Shown here: in pieces, positions 189-54,585 of the stretch
How positions within the stretch are numbered: position 1 is the first letter of the stretch
Layout: every line of letters starts with the position of its first letter
Assembly: GCF_902713615.1 (NCBI RefSeq)
Contig: NC_052148.1
Location: forward strand, 210,460,263-210,524,262
Direction of reading: 5' to 3'
DNA: 64,000 nt
Source: Scyliorhinus canicula
Lineage: Eukaryota
The notes under the pieces: generated by a model
What the model was told of the DNA's origin: nothing
Databases searched by the model: none
Seen by the model: only the letters and a program-made list of their open reading frames with translations
Made by a program: the position numbers and the translations under genes

Positions 189-530
189 TCAAACTGCCGT
201 TTGCTTCTGTTGCAAGTCTATCTTTACCTCGTGGTGAGTAGAGGTGCCGGTTTTACGGATTTCTGTTGTGTGTACCTCGCAGTAGTTTTCAAACTTGTCC
301 AGGACTGTCTGGAAGTCTCTCTTGTCCTGCCCTTTGGAGTACTCGAAGGAGTTGAAGATTTCTGTTGCACTTTCACCCGCAATGGTGAGTAGAAGATCTA
401 TCTTCTCAGCATCGGCCACACCATCTAGCTCGGATGCCACCATGTAAAGCTCAAATCGCTGCTTGAATGCACGCCAGTTGGCACTGAGATTGCCGCGGTA
501 CCTGAACTGCTGAGGAACCAGAATCTCGAT
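189..530 (-). mobile_element. gag of an older Ty3/Gypsy LTR retrotransposon, interrupted by the provirus
   Basis: GNLSANWRAFKQRFELYM...KIDLLLTIAGESATEIFNSF is a typical Gypsy gag N-terminus. Removing 531-10395 restores ATG ATC GAG ATT CTG GTT CCT (MIEILVP) from the ATG at 10398. Confidence 0.85.
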
Positions 531-1497
531 TGTTGCTCGTTCTACTGTTAGTGTGATTAACACGCCTCCATTTAAAGGACATGTGCTTAACACTGGTTTG
601 GCTCTGTATCTGTATTTATACTCAGGAGTCGCCAGGTGCCATAAGAGACACCGTCACAAGTTATCAAGGTCAAGTTCAAAGCAATAAATCTAAACACCGA
701 TCAGTAAGTCCAAACAATTAGTGTTTATTATAACAAATATAATAAATACTCATGCACACGCTAAAAGACTAATACTTATTCCTACTATTCAACGACTAAA
801 TACTTATCTAGAAAGGAACAGGCAAGGTCAGGGGGGCAAGGCCTTCGTCCCGTTCTTGGTCTGCAACTTCTGGTTATTAAGTCGGCAAGTGTATAAGCAA
901 CGCCTGGGTCACGTAGCGATCGTTGTTTTGGCACTTACTGATAGATGGCTGATGCTCAACGGCCGCTGATGAAAGACAGGGTCTGGAAGCTGGGGTCAGA
1001 GTCTGGAGTCAGGATGCAACAGCCTAGGCCGGAGTCAGGAAGCAACAGACCGAATCATGTGTGGGACCTTTTTTTTATAGGTCCCAGGAGGTCCAGGTCC
1101 CCTTGGGGCGGTTCCCTCATCGATTGGGTCTTTCCCGATCGATACGTTTTGAACTCCCCTATCCTGGGGTCGTTTCTCGATGGCTGGGGCGGTTCCTCGG
1201 GGTCACTATTCTGGTTTCTCTGGCGCCATCCTGGCTGGGTAGCTATAGAAAAGTATCGATTGATACTTAAAATGTTTCTATTGTATCTGGGACTGGGCCG
1301 GTATCACCTCATTAGTATGCAGATCGCTTTCCTATTTGCACCTTTGGCTGAGTTTCTGCAACTGCCTTGAAACCGGTTTTGTACGTGCAAAAATGCTAAA
1401 TGCTTCTGCAAGCTGTGTGTCCTTACTATGGCTGTTTTTCCCTGTATTCTTTGTGGTTCTCCATTTTGTAGACTGGTGTCCATCTTAGAGGGCTAAA
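531..1497 (-). repeat. 3' LTR of the provirus
   Basis: Aligns end to end with 9425-10391, with about 29 differences by manual count (~3%). On the minus strand it ends CAACA and begins TTTAG rather than TGTAG (G>T change). It follows the PPT. Confidence 0.96.
724..729 (-). terminator. Polyadenylation signal of the 3' LTR
   Basis: Minus strand AATAAA (plus strand TTTATT), conserved in the 5' LTR at ~9618-9623. Confidence 0.65.
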
Positions 1498-1508
1498 TTC
1501 CCTCCTTG
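1498..1508 (-). promoter_or_regulatory. Polypurine tract
   Basis: Minus strand AAGGAGGGAA directly abuts the 3' LTR. Confidence 0.8.
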
Positions 1509-1885
1509 TGATCCTCACGAGAAATTCTGAAGGATCACCTATGTATGGTTCTTCTATGTTACTTCGATTTCCTTTGGGTTCCTTTTTGGGTTCCCTGACC
1601 TTAGCAAGTTCCTGGGCGTCTACTCTGTCCTTAACTATGGCAAGAAAATTTTAACTCACATTTTCTACTTGGCGCTATGTCAAAGGGGACTTGCATTACC
1701 AATATTCGGGAACCTCTATCTATCACAATTCCTATTCTCATCTTACTTTAAACATTTCATCACATTCTAAAGTCTTATCCATTCACACCACAGTACATGT
1801 CGCTTTCTGACTCGGCAATCGAGTTCAGAACCATATAATACATCAGTGTCTCATTTTTATTTACATATGGCTATAAATACATTTC

Positions 1886-2233
1886 CTATGCATCAAGGGG
1901 TTGGGGGGATTGGTGAAACCCGAAAATAGGGGATTGAACTCCGTAAATGGTTGAGGGGCAGGAATGGGAGGCTCTCCTTTTCCATTTCCTCAACCTGAGG
2001 GTCTGTACTATGATGCAGAGAATTGCAATCACCAACAGTGATTCAATCACATACGACATCGAGTACCAGGTCATGAATTTCGTGCACCAGGTCTGAACCT
2101 CACTGATCAGTGCTGAGAATGGAGAAGTCGATGTGTGGGAAACATTAACGGCGGGGGTCGCGGGGGAAACATGATTTGCTTCAACATGCAAAAATACAAC
2201 AATATTTAAAATAAATAGGTAGGCTTCCATCAT
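1886..2233 (-). CDS. 115-aa predicted type-I membrane protein in the env position (function unknown)
   Basis: ACCATGATGG Kozak context; hydrophobic N-terminus (YLFILNIVVFLHVEA); S/T/P-rich ectodomain with an NVS sequon; hydrophobic segment VIESLLVIAILCIIVQTL; polybasic RLRKWKRR; no internal stops. Confidence 0.6.
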   Translation of the reverse strand: MMEAYLFILNIVVFLHVEANHVSPATPAVNVSHTSTSPFSALISEVQTWCTKFMTWYSMSYVIESLLVIAILCIIVQTLRLRKWKRRASHSCPSTIYGVQSPIFGFHQSPQPLDA

Positions 2234-3160
2234 GGTCTTCTTTGTTCTCTTCCTTCTCTTCCTTTGTATGGCCGATCCTTGCCGTGAACCCTCCGACTGT
2301 TCGAAAGCTATGGGATCAAGCACAGTATCTGTCAATACACAGTTTAATATCTGTACTGTTAGTGTATCTGTCCTCTCATTCGAATTGACCCTTAAATGAA
2401 TGGCCAAGTCACACCCTGTGACTCCCCTCATTTTTTTTTTCAAATGCAAATTTAGGAGCAGATATACACCTAACAACTTTTCTACTGCGAGCCGTCTCGC
2501 AGGCTTTGCGATTTACCATCCGAATGTTCCTGGATGTAAATAGCATGTGGGATGGCTGCCGAAGGGCTACCTAAAGAAAAATGAAACCAAATTTTGAACG
2601 AAAAGGTCGAATGAGTTGCGTATGGGCCGCTACGGGTAAGATTTGAACGGGATCCCCGGGTAAGACGTGCTGTGCCGTACCCGAGCTTGGCTGACCAAAG
2701 GGGTTCTCAGACAGGGCGGGTCCTCAGTGCCGTTTGTCCGCTACCTGAGCAACCTGAAATGAACGGGTATGAATGTATTCATCGTGGGATTGCAGCCTCT
2801 ATTCACAGAATAGAGGGGTACCTGAAAAAGAAGGGAGGAGCCAAGATGCTCCAACATCCGAAAACAGATTACAAGTCGTGAACTTTGTCGGTTCACCAGA
2901 GGATACTTAACTGAAGTTCTCAGAGGTATCTGCGGATAAACTAACGTGTGTGCGAGGCGGTCACAAGCTTTTCAGCTGAAAAGAAGATGGCCAACCTCCA
3001 ATCAAACCTTTAACAAACAACAAAGTGATCTGATCTCCAATCAAACCCTTAATATTATCAAAAAACAAACAAACACAAACAAACAAAACATACGTGCAGG
3101 TTCCATCAGAAAGGATATCGCTTCCCTCAAGCGGTTCCTCTTTTACATCATCTGGACACC

Positions 3161-6100
3161 TCACTTCTCCTCTTTCTCTGTGAACAGGGTCACAAAGGGG
3201 TTGCCGTATCGGGAGTCAGACATCACGTCTTCCTTTTCTCCCGGATCCCACACTCTTGTGTGGATCAGGCACGCGATCTGTGCATTATGTGACCGGGGGT
3301 CACTCTCATCCTTGCGGACAAGTCTCCATGAATTGTCCCTTTGCCAAATTGTGGTATCTAAGTTTGAAGGGGCATTGTCGGTGTCGTCGGGGTCGGGTGG
3401 TGGGTCTAGGTATTTAACGTAGGTGACCTCCATGGGGTCACTGGAGTCGGGGTCGAAGTCGTTGAAGTGGGGGCTGTAGGGTGGAGTTCTGTGGCTGTCC
3501 TCAGTTTCACAGTCACTGTCGCTGTCTCTGCTGTGGCAGCTTGTGGGCGTTTTGGGGCGTGGTCTGAAGTCAGTGGACGGCGTCATGGGCGAGTCCGATG
3601 AGGAACTGGTCTGTGAGGGGGATGGTGGGAATGTGTCTCTAGTGGGCGGGGCGAGATGTTCTGCTGCGTCTAGCAGGACATGGTGTGTGTGGTTAGACTG
3701 TGTTCCATATGCCTTCAGTTGGTTAATATGAAACCACGCAGTCTTACCATTGGGGTATTTTATTCTATAAATGGAGGGGCTAATTTTGTCCGAAATTGAA
3801 TACGGGCCGGAAAATTTAGGTGCCAAAAAGCTGCTGGGGTTATAAACAGATAACATTACCTGTTGTCCAACCTGAAATTCTGTGGGGTGTACGTTCTTAT
3901 TAAAGCAAGCTGTGCTTTGTTTTCGTCTTTTTCCCAATTTTACTGCGGCTGCTAACTGTGCAGACCTCACAGTCTCAACTAGGTCTTTGATTGCCTTCTC
4001 ATGTGTGAGGGCCGTCACTTCGGGGCTAGTCATGTCCAGTCCTAAAAGGAATTCTGTACCTTTCATAGGGCGTCCGGTCATGAGCGTGTGTGGGGTGAAT
4101 CCTGTGGATGATGAAACCGTGTTGCGGATGAACATGAATGCGAATGGGAGTACTGAATCCCATGTTGAATTGTTCTCCTGAACTATTTTTCTAAGGGTCG
4201 ATTTTAGGGTCCGATTCATGCGTTCGACTGGGGGTGATACGCAATGTAGAAATTTTGTTTAATGCCAAATATTGTCAGGACGTTCTGCATGACCCGTCCT
4301 GTGAAGTGAGATCCCTGATCTGCATCTATACTTCTCGGGAGACCCCATCTCGTGAAGATGTGGTGGGTCAGGATCTTTGCAGCTGTCTTAGCTGTATTGG
4401 TTCATGAGGGGAATGCCTCTACCCATTTGGTAAAGGTGTCTATAACGACCAGAACATATTTATAGCCATTCCTACAAGGGGGCAATGGTCCTATAAAATC
4501 GATCTGGAGGTTAGTCCAGGGGCCATTAACTGGTCGAGTATGTCTAAGTTGTGCCTTTTTCGAGTACCTCTCCGGGTTATTTTGTGCACAAATTAGGCAA
4601 TTCTCGATGTAATGGGTCACATCGTTTCTTAAATTTGGCCACCAACAGAGTTGCCTGAGGTGCCTTGTGGTCGGGTCGATCCCTTGGTGTCCATGACTGT
4701 CATGGAACAAGGCAATCATCTGATTCCTATTCTGTTCCGGAACCACATAAAGTTTATCCTTAATGATCACACCCTCATGTGTGGTCAAAGCGTGTCTGAA
4801 CGTATCGTATTGGTGCACAAAATTTCCTTTAAAAATCTCCCTGAGATCTCTATCCTGCTTCTGTGCCTCAACTAAGTCTTTAATTTCCGTCTGTGAGACC
4901 TGAACTGCACTCACAGGGGCGCTAGCTGGTGCGCCAGCTGGGGGTGTCCAAAAGTGTCCTCGCCTGGAACCTGCTTTTGCCAGTGCATCGGCTTTTACAT
5001 TTCCAGGGGGGGATGACCTATGGTGACTTCTAACTTTGATTATGCCATACGTCCTATCCTTTGCCTTCTCTAGGATATGGCGGAGTAATGGGGCTGATGG
5101 AAGGGGCTTCCCGTCCGCGGAGACAAAACCTCGTGTCCTCCACAGGGGTAGAAAATCTGTTAAACTGTTACAGACATACAAACTGTCCGAATATATGTCT
5201 GCCGGGCTGGGAAACGAATCTGGGTGGTCCACTATGTATGCGATGGCCGCGAGCTCTGCTGCCTGCGCGCCTAAGTGTCCTGGTAATTTTAAAGAGATTT
5301 CTTCTAATGCGCGACCCTGCGCATCCTCAACATAGATCCCGCATCCAGTGATGCGTTCTCCATCTAAAACTGTGGATGAACCGTCCACATATATTTTCAG
5401 TGGGGCACACGTGTCTGTGTGCTGGGGGCTCTGGCTTGAATTCCCTATCTTTCTGGGGGGTGTCTTTGCTATGAAGGTTCCTGTGTTGTGTAGGGGTGCT
5501 ACAATTTCACATTCATGGGGCTGTCCTGGATATTGGAGGTTGTCGGCTAAAAATGTGTGTGTCCTGGTCCGTTTAACTGTGATGCCCCGTCCTTGTAAAA
5601 GTAACGTCCATCTAGCTGCTCTAATCTGGCTAACTGAACCGTCCTTCAGTCGACCGGCTAGAAGTAACTGTGTGGGGGTGTGCTCGGTCAAAATGGTGAT
5701 GGGATTGAGTCCGGTAATGTACGCAAAGTACTGAACTGCCCAAAAAACTGCTAGGAGGTGCCTCTCGCAGGCTGAAAATCCTTGCTCTACGGGGTCTAAA
5801 AGTCTGGAGGCATAAGCCACTGGTCTTAGCTGCTCGTGCCGTTCCTGGAGTAGCACGGCCGAGAGGGTCAGATCTGTGCTCGCTACCTCTATTGCATAGG
5901 GGGAGAGTTGGTCTGGGACTTGTAGCGCGGGTGCTGCGCTAAGGGCTTTCTTTAAATCTTCCACAGCCTCTGTATGCTGCGGAAGCCATTCCCATGGGGC
6001 TCCTTTCTTAAGGAGGTCTGAGAGTGGGGCTGCCTTTGTCGCGAAACCATCGATATGGTTCCGACAGTAACCAACCAGTCCTAAAAACGACCGGAGGGCT

Positions 6101-7041
6101 GAAACATTCTGGGGAAGGGGCAATTTGACAATCGAATCAATCCTTTTGAATTCGATCTCGCGTTTGCCGTGCGTGATGACTGTACCCAAATACATCACTT
6201 TGTTCTCTAATATCTAGGCCTTTCTGGGGTTAACTTTACATCCGATCGAGGTTAAAAGTTCCAGGAGCTCGGCCAGAAGCGTAATGTGCTCTGCCTTTGT
6301 GTCTGTCTGCAGTAATAGGTCGTCCACATACTGTACCAGACATTCGGGGCGGGAAAATTTTACTAAACCATTTGCCAGCTGTCGGTGGAAAATGGAGGGT
6401 GAATTGTGGAATCCTTGTGGGAGGCATGTCCACGTATACTGCTGTCCTTTAAATGTGAAGGCAAATTTGTACTGGCACGCCTTTGCCAATGGGATTGACC
6501 AGAAGCCATTGCTAATGTCCAAAACCGTGAAGAATTTTGAGTGGAGTCCCTGTTTGAGCATGGTCTCGGGACTTGTTGCTACCGTGGGGGTTACTTTGTT
6601 GAGCTCCCGATAATCGATGGTCAGGCGCCATGATCCGTCGGGCTTTCTCACTGGCCAAATAGGTGCATTATTGGTCGAGGCTACTGTCCTAAGTACACCT
6701 TGCTCCAATAAGCTATCTATTACTTTTCCTATTTCTCCCTCTGCTTCTAGGGGAAATCGGTACTGTTTCTGTGGTCGGGGGTCAGGTCCGGTAACTTGAA
6801 CTTGTCCAGTCACTCTGCCGCAGTCATGCCGGTGACTGGCAAATGCTGTCCTGTGTTTATTCAAAACTGTCCTAACCTGTTTGCCCGTGCTAAGCGTGGT
6901 CGGGTCGAAACAATAGTCGCCTACTGCGCTAATCCTATTCGCATACTCTCCTACTGTGAGAGTAGCGGGTGCTCTGTCTGATTTTGCCATTCGCCAGACA
7001 CACTGGTTTACTGGATCGAACGACAGGCTATGAGCATTCAT
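3161..7041 (-). pseudogene. pol: pol: reverse transcriptase, degenerate RNase H tether, RNase H, integrase with long C-terminal tail
   Basis: RT motifs LDISNGFW, LPQGFHNSP, YVDD. In-frame TAG at 6214-6216. RNase H motifs YVDGS/AELAA/SDS/ADALA. IN motifs HHCC, QIDFIGPLP, ERMNRTLK, GPY. Frameshifts near 4402 and 4230. Confidence 0.95.
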
Positions 7042-7368
7042 GAAATCTATACCCAGTATGTGTTCTGCTGTACGGGGTAGATTAACTAATGCAACGGGGT
7101 GTCTGGTGGAGATGGTCCCTAGCTGAATTGCTACGGGGGCTGTAATGTGTCCCTGCTGTGAGTGTCCTGTAAAACCGCTGAGTGTAATGGTGGATGTGGT
7201 CGGCCACGTGTCTGCCTGTGCCGTGGTGGTGGAATTAATTGTGGTGCGGGACCGTCCTGTGTCCCAAAGTAACTCTATGGGCTTCCCTCGAACCTTTGCT
7301 GTGACTACCGGTCTCCCGGATTGGTCCCAGAGGGTGTCACAGACCCAAGTGGGGGAGCCCGAACACTG
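7042..7368 (-). pseudogene. pro: Aspartic protease domain (not shown in the ORF track because it has no start codon)
   Basis: Manual translation is open and in frame with gag and RT: ...PIELLWDTGRSRTTIN...EHILGIDFM. Confidence 0.9.
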
Positions 7369-9114
7369 TCAGTCCGTTCCGTCCACATTGGTCTGTCCTG
7401 ACTGTATTCCTATACTGTGAATAGGCTTCGCTCTATTTCTGTTCAGAGTGCCTGTCTGCTGGCCTCTCTGTGATCTTTGGGGTGCATTGCCTTCCTTAGC
7501 AAAATGTCCTAACTGACCACAGTTGTAGCATTCCTGCGACTTCTGTGGAGGGCTGTTCTTCCCTTCGTTTACCCATGCGGGGTTTTGGTGCGCTCTCACT
7601 GCCTGAATGTCCGCTGCAGCCTGAGCTTCATCTGGGGTCTTTATTTTAATTTTGCCCTGAACCGATTGTTCCCAAGCGCGGGACAATCTTTTCAGAACCC
7701 ATTTCTCGTTATGGGCCTCCTCTGAGGGGTCGTAACTATTGCAAGCACTCTGTCCTGCATCTGTGGCATGGGAGATTATGGTGCGTGTCCATTTAACCAT
7801 GTTGTCACGGTTCAAACGCGCTCGGTTTAATTCGCCAAAAACTGCAGTGAAATGGATCCACAGCCTTCCTGCAAATGTTGTGGGATGCTCTGTTCTCTTT
7901 TGTCTGCATTTATTTCGTCCTTCAACTGGATCTCCTCTGTTATACCCTATTGCACCTAAAATGGAGGTGTGCATTTCCTCTAGTGTGCCTCCTCCAACGA
8001 TCTGTGGGTCGGGGAGGGCTGCTACTACGGATGGGTCTAATCTCAGAACCGTGAGCTTAACCTGCTCTCTATCGTCCAGGCCGTACATGGTCGCCTGCTG
8101 TTTAACATTTGCGAAAAATTGGTGGGGGTCTCCGGTGGGGAGAAACGGAGTGATTTTCTCACACGCGTCCCTGAGTTACGTTACAGTTAAGGGGGTGGTG
8201 TAGGTGATATCGGGTGCGCCGTCTGTGGTTGCCTTTCTTTGGGTGGTGACTGGGTTCATAGGTGCGGATGCTATCTGATCTGTGGGGGGTTGGGGTGCTC
8301 TCCTTTTCTGCTGCGCTGCTGGTGCACATGTTCCTTGAACATAGCGCTGCGCTGTCTCACTCAGTTCCTGCCAGTCTGGGGCATTCTCCTCATCTAACTG
8401 CGTTCCAAAGGTGCTTTGGAACCCATTCTGCACTGAAAGCAACAATTGCAGCTCCGCAATCTGCTGCCTACATTTTGCATGGTCTACTGTGCTCTGTCAT
8501 TGCTCAGTGGTGGCAGCATGGAGTGCTCTTAAAGCTGCCTTTAGGTCAGAGCATTGCCTCTGCAATGCCTCTACCTGCTTTTCCGATTCCTCTCTTATCA
8601 GGACTTCACGTTGCACATCTTGGTAGGCTTTTTCGTATTGGGTCTGGGAACTGCTCCGATGGGCTAGACACGACTGATGTGCCCTCTTGGCATCATCCAC
8701 CTCTCTACCCTTCTCTGTCAGCTTCCCTCTTAGTTCTAAGTTTTCCTTCTTGATGTCCCTGACATCCACTTTACTCATTCTATTCCTCTCTTCTAACTCT
8801 GCTCGGAGCGTCCGAACGACCTCCTCAGTGCCTCGCAACTGTGCCAAACAGGACACGATTGCCATCGGCTTGCGTGCTTTACTCGGATTTTTCTTATGAA
8901 TTTGAGAGAGGTTCTCCCACCAAGTATGTCCTATACTCCCGGGACCTGTCTCCTCATTCATACAGAACTCATTCCAAAGGGGCCATCCCTTTCCTTTCAG
9001 ATACTTGCGGAGTTCCAGCTCCCACACGGGCCACTGACCTATTCGGCTACTGCTGGTCGCTGCGACCAAGAACTGCTCTGGGTTCATGAGGCGCTCCATT
9101 GCCTGCATGGCCAT
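7369..9114 (-). pseudogene. gag: gag (coiled-coil N-terminal part, capsid-like region, single CCHC-type knuckle)
   Basis: ORFs 8497-9114, 8176-8445 and 7369-8088 are all in one frame, broken only by TGA (8497-8499) and TAA (8176-8178). Knuckle CYNCGQLGHFAKEG has the last Cys changed to Gly. Confidence 0.88.
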
Positions 9115-9399
9115 TTTCTCTTTCTTACTTAAATTTGGAACAGGGGGTGTTGAGGTAATGTTTTAAAAGACGGGTAAGGCTTTTGCTATGTTCCGCTTAA
9201 AAACTCCTGACAGTTCGTCGCAACTAAAAGCTCTCAGGTTAACCTTACAACCCTGTTAGTACGCATGCACAAAACACACTTCCGAATTATCGTTATTGGT
9301 TTGAACACCTTGACCACTTGTGATTTTTCCTTTTTTCCAATCAGATTTCTAATTCAAATTTCTGGGTTCTTACGGAGTGGGGGTGCCACTTCTAATTGC

Positions 9400-9419
9400 G
9401 TCCCGTCTGAGAGTCGCCA
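9400..9419 (-). promoter_or_regulatory. Primer-binding site, tRNA-Arg(UCU)-like
   Basis: Minus strand TGGCGACTCTCAGACGGGAC starts 5 nt after the 5' LTR. The first 10 nt are complementary to the ...AGAGUCGCCA 3' end of vertebrate tRNA-Arg(UCU), recalled from memory. Confidence 0.7.
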
Positions 9420-9827
9420 CTAAATGTTGCTCGTTCTACTGTTAGTGTGATTAACACGCCTCCATTTAAAGGACATGTGCTTAACACTGGTTTGGCTCTG
9501 TATCTGTATCTATGCTCAGGAGTCGCCAGGTGCCGTATGAGACACTGTCACAAGTTATCAAGGTCAAGTTCAAAGCAATAAATCTAAACATTGATCAGTA
9601 AGTCCAAACAATTAGTGTTTATTATAACAAATATAATAAATACTCATGCACACGCTAAAAGACTAATACTTATTCCTACTATTAAACGACTAAATACTTA
9701 TCTAGAAAGGAACAGGCAAGGTCAGGGGGGCAAGGCCTTCGTCCCGTTCTTGGTCTGCAACTTCTGGTTATTAAAGTCGGCAAGAGTATAAGCAATGCCT
9801 GGGTCACGTAGCGATCGTTGTTTTGGC

Positions 9828-9833
9828 ACTTAC
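9828..9833 (-). promoter_or_regulatory. Candidate major splice donor inside the LTR R region
   Basis: Minus strand TCA|GTAAGT about 135 nt downstream of the TATA box, present in both LTRs. Confidence 0.5.
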
Positions 9834-9966
9834 TGATAGATGGCTGATGCTCAACGGCCGCTGATGAAAGACAGGATCTGGAGGCTGGGGTCGGAGTCTG
9901 GAGTCAGGATGCAACAGCCTAGGCTGGAGTCAGGAAGCAACAGACCAAATCATGTGTGGGACCTTC

Positions 9967-9975
9967 TTTTTATAG
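9967..9975 (-). promoter_or_regulatory. LTR TATA box (U3)
   Basis: Minus strand CTATAAAAA, conserved in the other LTR (~1072-1080), upstream of the LTR AATAAA. Confidence 0.65.
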
Positions 9976-10788
9976 GTCCCAGGAGGTCCAGGCCCCTTGG
10001 GGCGGTTCCCTCATCGATTGGGTCTTTCCCGATCGATACGTTTTGAGCTCCCTTATCCTGGGGTCGTTTCTCGATGGCTGGGGCGGTTCCTAGGGGTCAT
10101 TGTTCTGGTTTCTCTGGCGCCATCCTAGCTGATTAGCTATAGAAAAGTATCGATTGATACTTAAAATGTTTCTATTGCATCTGGGACTGGGCCGGTATCA
10201 CCTCATTAGTATGCAGATCGCTTTCCTATTTGCACCTTTGGCTGTGTTTCTGCAACTGCCTTGAAACCGGTTTTGTACGTGCAAAAATGCTAAATGCTTC
10301 TGCAAGCTGTGTGTCCTTACTATGGCTGTTTTTCCCTGTATTCTTTGTGGTTCTCCATTTTGTAGACTGGTGTCCATCTTAGAGGGCTACACGATCATCT
10401 TGCGTGGGTGCTGTTGCTGGTAGTCACGGATCTTGCTGAGTTGAACTATATAGATTCAACAGGCACTCACTGGTAGCATGTTGTGTTATGCTTCTTCATG
10501 TAGCATAAGCAGCTTCCTTGATGTATGCTTTGACAAAGGAAGGTCCAGACTTTGTAATGAGTTCAATATGTTTATTGAACTATTAACACAGTTCTTAAAT
10601 GAATTCGACTCTCCTGCTAATCTAACTGTAGTAGCTCTGTCTTACTAAACCAGTCTGCTCTAAGCCACGTGTTGGGTGTGATGCTTCTGATCAACCCTGA
10701 TGTACTCTCTGGATGTCTGTCTGTGGACAGAGGCACAGCATGTGTGCCCTGTCCTTTTATATGGGTTGTGTAATGCCCCCTTGTGGTA

Positions 10789-11144
10789 ATCATAGAATCA
10801 TAGAATTTACAGTGCAGAATGAGGCCATTTGGCCCATCGAGTCTGCACCGGCTCTTGGAAACAGCACCTTACCCAAGCCCATACCTCCAACCTATCCCCC
10901 TAAACCAGTAACCCCACCCAACACTAAGGGAAACTTTGGACACTAAGGGCAATTTAGCATTGCCAATCCACCTAACCTGCACATCTTTGGACTGTGGGAG
11001 GAAACCGGAGCACCCGGAGGAAACCCACGCACACACGGGGAGGATGTGCAGACTCCGCACAGACAATGACCTAAGCCGGGAATCGAACCTGGGACCCTGG
11101 AGCTGTGAAGCAACTGTGCTAACCACAATGCTACCGTGCTGCCC
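10789..11144 (-). mobile_element. HE1-like tRNA-derived V-SINE
   Basis: tRNA-like head GGGCAGCACGGTAGC, B box GGTTCGATTCCC, core GGGTTTCCTCCGGGTGCTCCGGTTTCCTCCCAC, (TTCTATGA)n tail. Confidence 0.88.
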
Positions 11145-11209
11145 AAATAAATAACTTCACCTTTCTCCCCATTGAAATTCATCTACCATCTCCCTGCCCA
11201 CTCCATAGT

Positions 11210-11528
11210 ATATCATAGGATATCATAGAACATACAATGCAGAAGGAGGTCATTCGGCCCATCGAGTCTGCACCGACCCACTTAAGCCCTCACTTCCACC
11301 CTATCCCCGTAACCCAATTTTGGACACTAAGGGCAATTTATCATGGCCAATCCACCTAACCTGCTCGTCCTTGGACTGTGGGAGAAAAACGGAGCACCCG
11401 GAGGAAACCCACGCAGACACGGGGAGAACATGCAGACTCAACACAGACAGTGACCCAGCAGGGAATCGAACCTAGGACCCTGGCGCTGTGAAGCCACAGT
11501 GCTATACACTTGTGCTACCATGCTGCCC
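11210..11528 (-). mobile_element. HE1-like SINE
   Basis: Same head, core and tail motifs. Confidence 0.85.
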
Positions 11529-11825
11529 AAACATTATTGTGTCATGTTCATCATTAATTCCAGATCTTGCATTGAGCTTTAAATTCCATCACCTGTCATG
11601 GTGGGAATCGAACCCGATTCCCCAAATCATTATCCTGGGTCTCTAAATAACTAGGCCAGCAGGAAATGCCACAATGCCACAACCTGCTGTCGGCTAAAAT
11701 GCCACCTCTGGATGTCCTGATTATCCATTGGTTGTGTCCTGTTGTAATGACCCAACTAGTGGTTACTTAGTTGCAGTGTATTTACATTAACCCCTTGTGT
11801 ATTTACAGTGATGCATATCACCGCA

Positions 11826-32009: not shown

Positions 32010-34140
32010 CAGTGAATCTGTATTCCTCAAACACGCAGCAGAGAAGAAAGCAGCAGAGACCCTTTTGAGGGTAGTAGGAGAAAGAGGCCACTACCAGTAA
32101 CCACAATGTAGGACGAAGGGCACAAGAAGTAATACTTGTAATAAAGAAATGGCAATAATTATGGGTGATTTTAATCTACATATAAACTGGAAAAAATGGA
32201 ATTGGCAGCAGAGCCTAGATGAGGTGTTCATAAAATGCTTTTGAGAGAATTGTTTTTGAGCAGCACATTCTTGAACCAACCAGAAAGCAAGTTACAATGT
32301 TACAGGAATAATTAATGTCCTCCGTGATGGCACCACTCGGTAGCAGCAACCACAGTATTAATGAATTTTACATGCAGTTTGAAAGGGAGAAGAGTGGGTC
32401 TGAGATTAGTACTTAAATAAGGGCAACCATGTGGGCATGAAAGTTAAGCGAGTTGAAGTGAACTGGGACCCTGGGCCGGGGGATAGATCAATAGAGAAAC
32501 CATGGCAAACATTTCAGGGGATATTTCGGAATACTCCGAATGATTCTATTCCTACTATAAAGAGAAAGGGGAGGACCTACCATCCGTGGTTAACTAATGA
32601 AGTTAAGGAAAGCATCAAACTTAATGAAAAAAACATACAAATGCGGCATGGTGAGTGACCAGTCGGATGGTTGGTCAGAAAATAAAGAATGGCAGAGAAT
32701 GACTAAAGGTTAATCGGGGAAAGAAATGAGAGAATGAGAGGAAGATAGCTAGAAATGTAGAAACAGACAATAAGAGTTTTTGCAGGTATTTAAAAAGGAA
32801 AATAGGAAGTCAAGTGAGTCTTGTTCCTCTAGAGAGTTAGAATGGGAAGTTAATAGTAAATAATAAAGAAATGGTGTTGAATTGAACAAGTATTTACTTC
32901 TGTCTTTAATATGGAGGATACAAAAAACATTCCAGTAAATTTAAAACTCAGGAGGTGGAACGGAGAGAGGAACTTTGTGAAATTTCAATCATTAGTGGAG
33001 CAGTACTGAGTAAACTGATGGAGCTGCAGGCTGATAAGTCTCTGGGTCCTGAAGGACTTCAACGTAGTGTCTGAAACAAGGTGGTTAAAATTTGCTAGAT
33101 TCTGGAAAAGTTCGATCAGACTAGAAAGTAGTAAATATAGGGCGGGATTTTCCCACCACACTGCCGCATGTTTTTCGGTGGCAGATGCAGCCCGCCAGTG
33201 GGATCTACCATTGCCAACAGGGTTTACCATTGACAGCACCCCTCATCGCCGTGTTGGACCGGGCATTCCCGCCAGCGTGAACAGCCGGTAGGTCCTTCCC
33301 ATAATCTCTTTTTTCAAGAGTGGCACGGTAGCACAGTGGTTAGCATTGTCGCTTCATAGCACCAGGGTCCCAGGTTCGATTCCCGTCTTAGGTCACTGTC
33401 TGTGTTGTGTCTGCACGTTCTCCCTGTTTCTGTGTGGGTTTCCTCCGAGTGCTCCCGTTTCCTCCCACAAGTCCCAAAATACATACTTGTTAGGTAAATT
33501 GGACATTCCAAATTCTCCCTCTGTGTACCCGAACAGGCACCGGAATGTGACAACCAGGGGCTTTTCACAGTAGCTTCATTGCAGTGTTAATGTAAGCTTA
33601 CTTGTGACAATAAAGATTATTAGAAAGAAGGGAGGGAAGCAGAAAATCGGGTGCTCCGGTTTCCTCCCACAGTGCAAAGATGTGCAGGTCAGGTGGATTG
33701 GCCATAATCAATGTGCAGGGGTTACAGGGATAGGGAGGGGAAGTGGGCCTAGATGGAGTGCTCTTTCAGAGAGTTGGTGCAGACTCAATGGGCCGAATGG
33801 CCGCCTTCTAGCTGTAGCGATTCTATGGATAGTCAGTGAGCGTGACATGGGAAGGTGTGAGAATCGATCATTTAAGGAGGTTATAGCTGGGCGCTTAGAA
33901 AAACTCAAGTTATTCAGAAAGAGTCAGCATGATTTTGTGCAAGGGAAATCATGTGTAACCAATTTATTAGAGCTCTTTGAAGGTGCAACATGTGTCGTGG
34001 ATAAAGGGGACCCCGTGGTTGAGTTGTACTTGGATTTCCAGAAGGCATTTGATATAGTGCCACACAAAGGAAAATAAAAACTCACGGTGTAGGGATAACA
34101 TTTCAGCTTGGATAGAAGATTGGCTTGCTGGCAGAAAACA
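32010..34140 (+). mobile_element. Old CR1-clade LINE ORF2 relic interrupted by a MITE and SINEs
   Basis: MGDFN-like motif, HPWLTNEVKESIK, SQHDFVQGKSCVTNLLE, YLDFQKAFD. Confidence 0.8.
33319..33622 (+). mobile_element. tRNA-derived V-SINE with a different 3' tail (TGTGACAATAAAG)
   Basis: Head and core as in HE1; the tail resembles that of the element at 54586-54766. Confidence 0.75.
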
Positions 34141-34250
34141 GGGGCTGGATTCTCCGTTTCAGGGACTATGTCCACTATGCCATCGGGAAAACTGTGGCCT
34201 TTATGCCAGAAAAACTGGTGTCAAAAGGCCAACATATTCACAGCCCTGCA

Positions 34251-35021
34251 GGGGGCGAGCAGGGAACCGTCGTGGGGCTAGCAGGGAGCCATCATGGGGC
34301 TAGCAGGGAGCCGTCGTGGGGCTAGCAGGGAGCCGTCGTGGGGTTAGCAGGGAGCCGTCGTGGGGCTAGCAGGGAGCCGTCGTGGGGCTAGCAGGGAGCC
34401 GTCGTGGGGCTAGCAGGGAGCCGCCGTGGGGCTAGCAGGGAGCCGCCGTGGGGCTAGCAGGAAGCCGTCATGGGGCTAGCAGAGAGCCGTCGTGGGGCTA
34501 GCAGGGAGCCGCCGTGGGGCTAGCAGGGAGCTGCCGTGGGGCTAGCAGGGAGCCTCCATGGGGCTAGCAGGGAGCCGCCGTGGTGCTAGCAGGGAGCCGC
34601 CGTGGGTCGAGCAGGGAGCCGTCGTGGGGCTAGCAGGGAGCCATCGTGGGGCTAGCAGGGAGCCATCGTGGGGCTAGCAGGGAGCCATCGTGGGGCTAGC
34701 AGGAAGCCGTCATGGGGCTAGCAGGGAGGCGCCATGGTGCTAGCAGGGAGCCGCCATGGGGCTGGCAGGGAGCCATCGTGGGGCTAGCAGGGGGCCGCCG
34801 TGCGGCTAGCACGGAGCCATCGTGGGGCTAGCAGGGAGCCATCATGGGGCTAGCAGGGAGCCATCGTGGGGCTAGCAGGGAGCCGTCATGGCGCTAGCAG
34901 GGAGCTGCCGTGGGGCTAGCAGGGAGCCGTCGTGGGGCTAGCAGGGAGCCGTCGTGGGGCTAGCAGGGAGCCATCGTGGGGCTAGCAGGGAGCCGTCATG
35001 GGGCTAGCAGGGAGCTGTCAT
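34251..35021. repeat. 22-bp G-rich minisatellite (GCTAGCAGGGAGCCGTCGTGGG), about 35 copies, inside a MITE starting at 34141
   Basis: Period 22 visible (unit starts at 34321 and 34343); MITE TIR GGGGCTGGATTCTCC at 34141. Confidence 0.95.
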
Positions 35022-36360
35022 GAAGCTCACAGCTCCAGCTGCAGATTCGGCCCCCCGCACGTCCGGGTCAGAGGCCCCGCATGCGCACGGTAGCAGCCTC
35101 GTGGGAATGTGCCGTGCTCCATGGCGGACTCAGACTGCGGAGCTGCACTGTGGAAATAGTGCCCCCTACCGGCCGGGCGCCTGTTGAAAGCGTTCCCCCA
35201 GCGGTTCTCTGCGCTCGATGGGCTGAGTCCCTCCGGCGTCATTTGCGTATTGTCCTACCCGGCGGGACCTCGGCGTTCTAGGTGGGGTGCTCTTTCAGAG
35301 GGCCAGTGCTGACACAATGGTCTGAATGGCCGCCTCCTGCACTGTCGTGATTCTATGGGGAAAAGCGTGGGGAATATGGGAAATGGGTGGGTGTGTTGGC
35401 TCGAGCAGCTTACCTTGGTGTTCAGTGGCGTCCTGGTGGGGGGCAGTGGGAGCTGACTCCAGGGGGGTGCCTCCACGGTGGCCAAGCCCGCGATCTGGGG
35501 CAACCGATCGGCGGGCGGGCTCATTCTGGGGGCGCCTATGTTCCTCCGCGCCGAGCCCCTTAGTGCTCGGCCATATTGCCTGGGGGCCGGCACGGAGACG
35601 GCCGTGGTGCATATGCGTGAACCCACGCCAACCGTAGCGGGAGCATGCGCTTACCCAGGCCGGCTGTGGTGGGTCGGCTTTCGGCGCCAGAGCAGCACTC
35701 CGGCGCCGTTCTAACCCCCGAGGAAGGGGTGAATGCCTGGGCCCAGAGGCCCGTTGATGCCGGCGTCAACACGTGTCTCTCAGCCAATAATACATTTAAT
35801 GAGGAATTTGACCAGGCACTATTTTCATCCCTCCACTGAGTCTGCCCAGTGCCATGAAAATCCAGCTCTGTATGTCTAATTGCTGCCTTCCCAGAACTTT
35901 CACCCAATGTGCAACTGGGCTTGTGCCTGTCACTGATTTCAGGTTTGTACTAAAGTAAAGTGGGCAAGGTTATTCACAGCCTCTCACATTATAATGCCTA
36001 TGCTTTGGCAAAGAGTTATCCAGACTCAAAACATTAGTTCTGCTCCCTCTTCACGGATGCTGCCAGGCCTGCTGAAATTGCCCACTATTTTCTGTTTTTG
36101 TAAAGGCTATGCTCGTGGGCAATCCAGCATGCAAACATCCAATGAAATAAGGTGCTATGGCCTGGTCTATATGGATCCCTACTGATGGATGGTTTTGCAG
36201 GGATCCCAGATTCAGGCTTAAGCAGAAGAGTAATGTATTTTTATTGATGCAGTCAGAGCCTTTTGGTCTCCAATATATTTTTTAAAAACTTAATGTATCC
36301 AATTCTTTTTCCAATTATGGGGCAATTTAGCATGGCCAATTCACCTACCTTGCACATCTG

Positions 36361-53610: not shown

Positions 53611-53968
53611 GGGCAGCATGGTAGCATAGTGGTTGGCACTATGGCTTCACAGGTTCGATTCCAGTTCAATTCTTGCCAGGGTCCCAGGTTCGATTCCTGC
53701 TTGGGTCACTATCTGTGCAGAGTTTGCACGTTCTCCCCGTGTCTGCCTGGGTTTCCTCCGGGTGCTCCGGTTTCCTTCCACAGTCCAAAGATGTGCAGGT
53801 TGGGTGGATTGGCCATGTTAAATTGCCCTTAGGTTAGATGGGGTTGCAGGGTTACGGGGATAGGGTGGAGGTGTGGGCTTAAGTAGGATGCTCTTTCCAA
53901 GACCCGGTGCAGACTCGATGGGCCGAATGGCCTCCTTCTGCACTGTAAATTCTATTTCTATGTCTATG
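53611..53968 (+). mobile_element. HE1-like SINE
   Basis: Head, core and tail motifs. Confidence 0.85.
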
Positions 53969-53975
53969 TCTTGAG

Positions 53976-54120
53976 TTGAAGATTGTAACAGTAATTGAAG
54001 ATTGTAACAGTATTTGAAGATTATAATAGTAATTGAAGAATGTAATAATAATTGAAGATTATAATAGTACTTGAAGAATGTAATAGTAATTTAAGATTGT
54101 AATAGTAATTGAAGATTATA
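53976..54120. repeat. 19-bp AT-rich minisatellite (TTGAAGATTGTAACAGTAA), about 7.5 copies
   Basis: Period 19 visible (unit starts at 53976 and 53995). Confidence 0.9.
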
Positions 54121-54585
54121 GCTTCACGGAATCACCAAACTCCAAAAATAAAAACAGATTAACATATTTCTACAAAGTAGATTATATTCCCTTGCATTTA
54201 ATACTTTAGTGTGATCTCTAGTTGGCAAAATGGCACATTTGCAGTTACTATGATGTCCAGGTTAAGAAAATTAAGAAAATATGCAAAGCAGCGACCAATG
54301 GTGAAAAAGCAAAATATGCACATGTTGGAAATTGAAAATAAAACCAAGAACGCTGGAAATAGTCAGCAAGTTAGGGAGTTCTCCAAACATTGGGCACGAT
54401 TTTTCTGGCCCATTCGACGTTGGTGCTGTATCTTGCACAAGGGTGATAACAGACTTGCGCCAGTGAGATCTTGGTCTGAGACCTTCCCTGACCCCTCTCA
54501 CTCCCACACCCAGAAGTGACGTGATCTGGGCGTGAATCTGAATTGCATTAATTTAAGTGAATTTAAATATAATTATGATAAATAA

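Follow-up and report, generated by a model that had tools for sequence, protein, structure and literature searches.

A probable basal SnRV-like endogenous retrovirus family of the catshark with a selected small gene at the env position

Endogenous retroviruses (ERVs) related to snakehead retrovirus (SnRV), including those of clade Huo, have been described in several studies (PMC12193657, PMC6001957, PMC4977317). Clade Huo spans all vertebrate groups (PMC6001957). Members of the SnRV-like set are on record from a chimaera (PMC4422223), and a frog harbours one that lacks env (PMC4131045); the set has been called unclassified (PMC4299795). SnRV itself has a coiled coil and a zinc knuckle in Gag (PMC2717909) and encodes several small open reading frames (ORFs) (PMC12193657). 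Among MDG1-group elements of Drosophila, sORF2 allows capsids to pass from soma to oocyte (10.1101/2025.03.14.642691). Here, we analysed a provirus in a 64,000-nucleotide stretch of the Scyliorhinus canicula genome (NC_052148.1, positions 210,460,263 to 210,524,262), hereafter the window. The provirus very probably represents a basal, loosely SnRV-like ERV within the canonical retroviruses. It has no env and carries at the env position a 115-codon ORF, which is almost certainly a real gene under selection.

The small ORF (2233-1886, minus strand) was overlooked in the first-pass annotation of this DNA, which was made from the sequence alone and had correctly noted the absence of env: no env-sized frame was found between pol and the 3' long terminal repeat (LTR) in the window, and none at 36 other loci. 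Of the variants in the small ORF that close copies share, 14 were synonymous and 3 non-synonymous (binomial p 1e-6; w 0.07); the corresponding ratios in its other two frames were 0:17 and 2:16. The flanking non-coding DNA gave w 0.6-1.1, and the ORF differed from these flanks with a Fisher p of 2e-4. For 17 divergent copies the median dN/dS of the small ORF was 0.21 at dS 1.7. The 66 codons upstream of 2233 were set aside as a part of the gene because they show no selection signal and their open-frame lengths vary. By hydropathy, on which the topology rests, the encoded protein has an N-terminal hydrophobic stretch (a predicted signal peptide), the sequon NVS, an S/T/P-rich stalk, a W/C amphipathic segment and a single transmembrane (TM) segment at about residues 58-76, followed by 6 K/R within 15 residues and a short tail. 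The sequon, the amphipathic segment before the TM (muH 0.47-0.58) and the basic patch (4-7 K/R) were present in 20/20 aligned rows. The pol tail is situated no more than 1.0 kb upstream of the small ORF in 19/19 sampled loci, which therefore leave no room for an env, and no longer forms of the ORF were found among these 19 loci.

A HMMER scan of 1.84 billion proteins returned five matches to the small protein, of which four were credible, all from Scyliorhinus; the fifth, P0040, is a repeat in a fish FHF-complex protein and was set aside as spurious. Unlike the Pol relatives, relatives of the small ORF were thus found in this library scan only in catsharks. The closest Gag relatives (70-77% identical) are also Scyliorhinus proteins, in agreement with the cartilaginous fish host proposed at first. 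The small ORF had no Pfam match above the cut-off, and all its Atlas leads were below 0.9. Literature searches gave no report of this family, nor of a vertebrate ERV in which a small TM gene takes the place of env; the family may sit in Dfam, Repbase or supplements. As a separate observation, a catshark HEPACAM2-like isoform model (P0039, XP_072365112.1) ends in the TM and basic tail of the small ORF, possibly by exonisation or as a gene-model artefact.

The first-pass annotation had read the element as an intermediate between Ty3/Gypsy elements and retroviruses. Our reverse transcriptase (RT) tree, which included 80 of 187 RT domains plus the window after redundant Gypsy rows and near-copies were omitted, did not bear this out. 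The window fell inside the canonical retroviruses (100/99), with four Loki-like rows (100/99) and Gypsy (100/100) outside, and grouped with frog, coelacanth and unnamed ERV Pols (96/89); SnRV branched nearby and not as its sister. Length and RT motif served to assign the reference rows as foamy, gamma, epsilon, delta or caulimovirus, and published signatures to assign the Loki-like ones; the SnRV reference record was L058 (10,688 nt). The tether tree likewise placed the window with the retroviruses (97/90), within a grade that branches below the SnRV, foamy and class I rows. The RNase H tree joined it with foamy and Loki-like rows (98/86), which corresponds to group I of PMC7947760, and the base of the integrase (IN) tree was not resolved. 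Approximately unbiased (AU) tests, run on a 55-row subset with groups that were named after the RT tree was seen, rejected the groupings window+Loki (p 0.0013), core+Loki (0.0009), basal grade+Loki (0.0015) and core+foamy (0.008). They did not reject core+SnRV (p 0.30), basal+SnRV (0.33) or the widest Huo-like set (0.058). The RT shared 58% identity with frog ERVs, 50% with SnRV, 40-43% with Loki-like and 36-40% with foamy sequences.

All the protease and RT motifs reported at first were located: WDTG at 7266, LDISNGFW at 6522 and YVDD at 6330, with QKQY and PQGFHNSP inside the frame 6214-7368. LDISN, described at first as foamy-like, occurs in the alignments of the Odin paper in the SnRV row only; the Loki supplement shows it at three places, two of them likewise SnRV. 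The Loki and Odin RT rows carry SRWP and PFGYxNSP, whereas the window carries LPQG and LVQYVDD. The best solved-structure matches of the window RT were foamy RTs, but SnRV-like RTs are absent from the structure database, so this ranking carries no information. Two RNase H-like domains are indeed present. The first is without the D/E/D residues that three Gypsy alignment rows retain and is therefore a catalytically degenerate tether; the second retains YVDGS/QAAEL/YSDS/ADAL. This arrangement is normal for retroviruses (PMC7947760). The annotation's description of an env-less or env-replaced, deep-branching element agrees with the small ORF at the env position and with the basal grade in the RT and tether trees.

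Several memberships were considered and rejected. Ty3/Gypsy was excluded by the RT, which lies outside the Gypsy rows, and by the degenerate tether with a second, active RNase H. Lokiretroviruses and Odin were excluded by the AU tests (p 0.0009-0.0015, with Loki-like proxies and with Odin absent from the trees) and by the different RT motifs, and a Loki F-like env by the lack of any env frame in the element. Spumaretrovirinae were excluded by the AU test (p 0.008; fish foamy-like ERVs were absent from the trees), by the zinc knuckle and by the gag-stop-pol arrangement in one frame. ERV4, with a 5-bp target-site duplication and neither zinc finger nor GPY/F (PMC4299795), does not correspond to the window, which has a 4-bp duplication, a knuckle and GPY. 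Troyka was excluded on termini and target-site duplication (PMC12440569). The catshark ERV-Spuma.0-Sca has a total length similar to that of the window element, but its 866-bp LTRs, 2.3-kb gag, 2.9-kb pol, 1.3-kb env and position in the foamy clade (PMC10699275) represent another layout and so another family.

SnRV shares with the window LDISNGFW in RT, the tether plus RNase H, the coiled-coil Gag with one CCHC knuckle, and gag, a stop and pol in one frame. However, SnRV has an env and a TAG stop, whereas the window has no env and TGA; their Gags are unalignable beyond the knuckle and the coil, and IN and tether are distant. The SnRV primer site is also of the arginine type, at a different Arg site from tRNA-Arg(UCU). 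The closest Pols (54-58% RT identity) are frog and coelacanth proteins annotated as 'NYNRIN-like' (P0001-P0003, P0005, P0007) and the unnamed P0008. CmiERV lineage I of the elephant shark, compared here by its description, is SnRV-like, about 9.6 kb long and has a polypurine tract CACAAGGAGG similar to that of the window, but its definition rests on an env homolog, and its LTRs are short (PMC4422223). Lokiretroviruses and Odin share with the window the dual RNase H, in some cases an smc-like coiled coil, a similar IN and tether and, in Odin, the lack of env, but their RT signatures differ and the Loki env is paramyxovirus-F-like; Loki was reported in none of three carpet-shark genomes (PMC7947760, PMC9040795). 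The element thus adds a well-preserved shark member with the full layout to a poorly classified, short-branched grade with frog, coelacanth and turtle relatives. This grade lies between the lokiretroviruses and the named genera in the RT and tether trees and bears on the rooting of Retroviridae and on the timing of env gain and loss. As side observations, the 'NYNRIN-like' annotation of P0001-P0005 suggests that the grade may be kin to the donor of the retroviral domains of mammalian NYNRIN/CGIN1, and the frog Pol model P0002 runs, by eye, into a stretch with a signal peptide and an Ig-like part at residues ~1200-1331. This extension is perhaps the start of an env; it gave no match to SnRV env.

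The provirus runs on the minus strand from 10391 to 531, with LTRs at 531-1497 and 9425-10391, and is flanked on both sides by CGAT. The LTRs differ by 27 mismatches (20 transitions; Kimura two-parameter distance 0.029), in accordance with the ~3% divergence given at first. Its features are as follows.
9425..10391, minus strand: 5' LTR, 967 bp, TG...CA, with a TATA-like box at ~9974 and AATAAA at ~9623
9402..9419, minus strand: primer-binding site (PBS) for tRNA-Arg(UCU), preceded by a 5-nt spacer
7369..9114, minus strand: gag, 581 codons, with an N-terminal coiled coil, a capsid fold and one zinc knuckle (~7530-7489)
7371-7369, minus strand: gag terminator, a family-wide TGA
3161..7368, minus strand: pro-pol in the gag frame, with protease, RT, tether, active RNase H, integrase and a low-complexity tail
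2571..2976, minus strand: three splice-acceptor-like sites (2976, 2822, 2571), with the AG common to 14/14 close copies
1886..2233, minus strand: 115-aa small ORF where env would lie, encoding a predicted membrane glycoprotein
1498..1510, minus strand: polypurine tract adjoining the 3' LTR, common to close copies
531..1497, minus strand: 3' LTR, 967 bp
527..530, no strand: left copy of the target-site duplication CGAT
10392..10395, no strand: right copy of the target-site duplication CGAT
192..530, minus strand: older LTR element with an interrupted frame, the insertion target of the provirus; no Pfam match

The first of two reading frames spans 9162 to 4219 and contains six stops; the other carries the remaining pol to 3161. 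Pfam matches were obtained for zf-CCHC, the protease, RVT_1, RT_RNaseH(_2), RNase_H, Integrase_H2C2, rve and the SH3-type C-terminus, and the integrase contains HHCC, the GPY motif and this SH3-type C-terminus. The capsid fold in the C-terminal half of Gag was recognised by an Atlas structure match; a single-sequence fold of a natural catshark Gag relative reached a pLDDT of 42. Seven of nine listed family copies, the window among them, have a 4-bp target duplication.

To sort lesions from natural features, 17 other copies, from 20 scored candidates, were aligned to the window. The premature stops at 8499 and 8178 in gag and at 6216 in pol were in 0/17, 0/16 and 0/16 of the other copies with letters there, and the stop at 4404, also in pol, was shared by 3/17. 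In addition, the frame shifts near 4231 and 12 nt have been lost in frame near 6591, and the zinc knuckle, noted in the first-pass annotation and matched by Pfam, is incomplete in this copy. The window provirus is therefore a broken copy with four premature stops and one frameshift: complete in structure, as was claimed, but not intact in coding. Gag and pol do share one frame, as proposed, split by the TGA at 7371, which was found in 18/18 close copies and in 13/14 divergent copies having that region. Because this TGA is kept family-wide, it represents the natural gag/pol boundary and implies readthrough, by which Gag-Pol would be made. UGA readthrough junctions have been described for SSSV, ZFERV and a toad ERV, and a UAG one in SnRV (PMC13517186). 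The RNA 3' of the gag stop folds as a long hairpin, but with a z of only -1.76 (11/200 shuffles equally good). Variants shared between close copies indicated strong purifying selection, with w of 0.01-0.12 in gag and pol and of 0.18 in the pol tail, and the divergent copies gave dN/dS of 0.07-0.13 for gag, RT and IN and of 0.47 for the pol tail.

A search with the small ORF gave at least 150 scored matches (the best 150 of 5368 candidates), one with a divergent small-ORF relative at least 150 (the best 150 of 6943) and a partial LTR search at least 40 (the best 40 of 3553); the family occupies hundreds of loci. All 18 loci sampled from the divergent-relative search were only 45-57% identical to the window small protein and therefore represent other subfamilies. 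LTR pairs of close copies are mostly 97-99% alike. The age is loosely fixed: the LTR distance corresponds to ~65 Myr at the rate of PMC4422223 and to ~10 Myr at the faster rate of PMC10699275. In two stranded poly(A) runs, most reads were oriented as element-sense RNA; only 5/986 and 11/2681 reads were at least 99% like the window copy, so other family copies are the RNA source. Read depth peaked at 2610-2906, and the joints listed in the reads resemble subfamily variants, not splicing. Two family copies (L011, L013) carry LINE-like endonuclease/RT frames that replace or interrupt their 3' part.

An Rfam tRNA search gave no Arg genes among 30 loci, and a pattern search was used instead, which located intron-containing tRNA-Arg(TCT) genes in the host. 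The PBS matched this tRNA over 18/18 nt in two of the 17 copies having a PBS and over 16-17/18 in four more; the window PBS matches it over 10 contiguous nt. A second PBS variant, found in 9/17 copies (L005, L006, L009, L010, L012, L013, L015-L017), matches tRNA-Arg over only 3-7 contiguous nt, and a search for a host tRNA fitting it found none. At one locus, L048 (1498-1545), and also at L051, L056 and L057, the match extends at least 39 nt across the splice junction of mature tRNA-Arg(UCU); these four loci were chosen by the tRNA pattern, and L048 was checked as a family member. A word of the tRNA junction is kept ~60 nt into the leader in 13/25 other copies and in the window at 9347-9356. 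The extended PBS is likely a relic of tRNA copied beyond the usual 18-nt stop.

The explanation to which we lean overall, with modest confidence, is that of an env-less basal SnRV-like ERV family with a selected small membrane protein that likely aids cell-to-cell passage. LTR-driven RNA would give Gag and, by TGA readthrough, Gag-Pol; tRNA-Arg(UCU) would prime reverse transcription and the integrase would yield the 4-bp duplications. A spliced or other subgenomic RNA would encode the small protein, which would reach the cell surface and move cores across the membrane between touching cells, for example from soma to germline. Because selection acts on variants shared between copies, the lineages that kept replicating kept the small protein, and given that there is no env, the simplest need it could serve is core transfer across a membrane. 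By the reasoning applied to env in reinfecting ERVs, such selection would mean that the small protein served spread. A role of the small protein itself in cell-to-cell transfer, for which we argue tentatively and by analogy, may well not hold. Like sORF2 and the reovirus FAST proteins (10.1101/2025.03.14.642691, PMC12945298), it is small, with a single TM, an amphipathic ectodomain and a juxtamembrane basic patch: it has 115 aa, within the 60-210 aa of these proteins, the single TM, the polybasic patch and the amphipathic ectodomain motif. sORF2, moreover, is a gene of an env-less Drosophila LTR element (10.1101/2025.03.14.642691). The window protein differs from sORF2 and FAST in having no myristoylation motif, in its predicted signal peptide and N-glycan, and in the position of its ORF 3' of pol; the motif is also missing in 2/6 sORF2 proteins (10.1101/2025.03.14.642691).

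Several points weigh against this explanation. The small protein has no sequence link to FAST, sORF2 or any family, the myristoylation motif is in 0/20 rows, and the pre-TM moment of the window protein is marginal against shuffles (355/5000). FAST proteins are not known to have a cleavable signal peptide or an N-glycan, both of which are predicted here. Three raw-read runs and one contig set showed no splice joint leading to the small ORF, and acceptor-like sites were present at only 10/19 sampled loci, with ATGs between them and the ORF. These 19 loci were themselves chosen via the small ORF, and env-bearing relatives without it would escape. As for the placement, the trees were computed under LG+G4 with no mixture model, and ERV-L, Odin, fish foamy-like and most class II references are absent from them. 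No tree makes SnRV the sister of the window, the window IN and tether score 153 and 70 bits to Loki-like Pols, the tether scores 28 bits to SnRV, and the SnRV IN is outside the top 45. We read the IN and tether likeness to Loki as ancestral similarity kept in a slowly evolving basal grade, with long-branch effects possible.

The small protein could instead be a shrunken env or an accessory protein that anchors Gag, counters a restriction factor or blocks superinfection, the element multiplying by germ-cell retrotransposition; we regard this as plausible but, on balance, doubtful. The ORF stands exactly at the env position behind acceptor-like sites, and its signal peptide, N-glycan and Trp-rich pre-TM segment are env-like. 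The signal peptide and the glycan site, together with the missing myristoylation motif, set the protein apart from FAST and suit this reading roughly as well as they suit transfer. Furthermore, the chimaera SnRV-like ERV with the similar polypurine tract is defined by env (PMC4422223), and env loss is known among SnRV-like ERVs (PMC4131045). However, comparison of the small protein with the C-terminus of SnRV env by hhalign revealed no similarity (probability 0.3%), it has no furin site, heptads or CX6CC, and longer forms were not seen at the 19 loci. A purely intracellular element also has less obvious use for a surface glycoprotein at dN/dS 0.07-0.21. Env loss is common among ERVs and does not bar retroviral membership. 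Spread by infection with an env-bearing helper virus in trans, with the small ORF as an accessory gene like the small 3' ORFs of SnRV, is quite improbable. SnRV does have several such ORFs (PMC12193657) and selection on gag and pol fits reinfection too, but neither 17 close nor 19 ORF-picked loci carry an env; among three close copies without the 3' part, two carry LINE-like frames there and the third no frame of at least 110 aa. A query with SnRV env found nothing in the genome, in a search that lacked a positive control. An intermediate of lokiretrovirus/Odin type or foamy-like kind between Ty3/Gypsy and retroviruses is very improbable: the IN and tether scores to Loki-like Pols, the RNase H grouping, the foamy RT structure matches and the SH3-type IN C-terminus, as in the Loki-like P0055, speak for it. 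Against it stand LPQG and LVQYVDD in place of SRWP and PFGYxNSP, the AU rejection of both Loki and foamy groupings, the RT and tether trees that set the window apart from Loki-like rows (3-4 Loki-like proxies), and the zinc knuckle and same-frame stop, which are not foamy traits.

Under the explanation of an env-less family with a selected small membrane protein, the basal SnRV-like ERV is of a known kind, and the selected microprotein in place of env is not described in the papers that our searches listed. An ERV without env would be expected to retrotranspose within cells and to have nothing under selection after pol, and this family departs from that expectation. A small surface-type gene kept under selection across subfamilies with near-saturated synonymous sites points to an undescribed replication step. 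In its strongest and rather unlikely form, the idea would be that a near-root vertebrate retrovirus lost env and reached hundreds or thousands of shark germline loci via a 115-residue mini-fusogen that takes cores straight from one cell to the next. If true, Drosophila sORF2 would have a vertebrate counterpart, and a true retrovirus would for the first time be seen to infect by an envelope-independent route.

The provirus landed in a small older LTR element (window 192-530 and 10392-10790), hitting a gag-like frame near its second codon; we take this frame to be a Gypsy-like gag by motif. The LTR of this older element at 10479-10790 has a 94% twin ~2.1-2.4 kb to the left of the window (L139:2589-2900). 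Elsewhere in the window, a dispersed SINE-like repeat is present in many copies on both strands (10788-11529 and other places), and tandem arrays of 22-bp and 19-bp units lie at 34120-35100 and 53957-54158.

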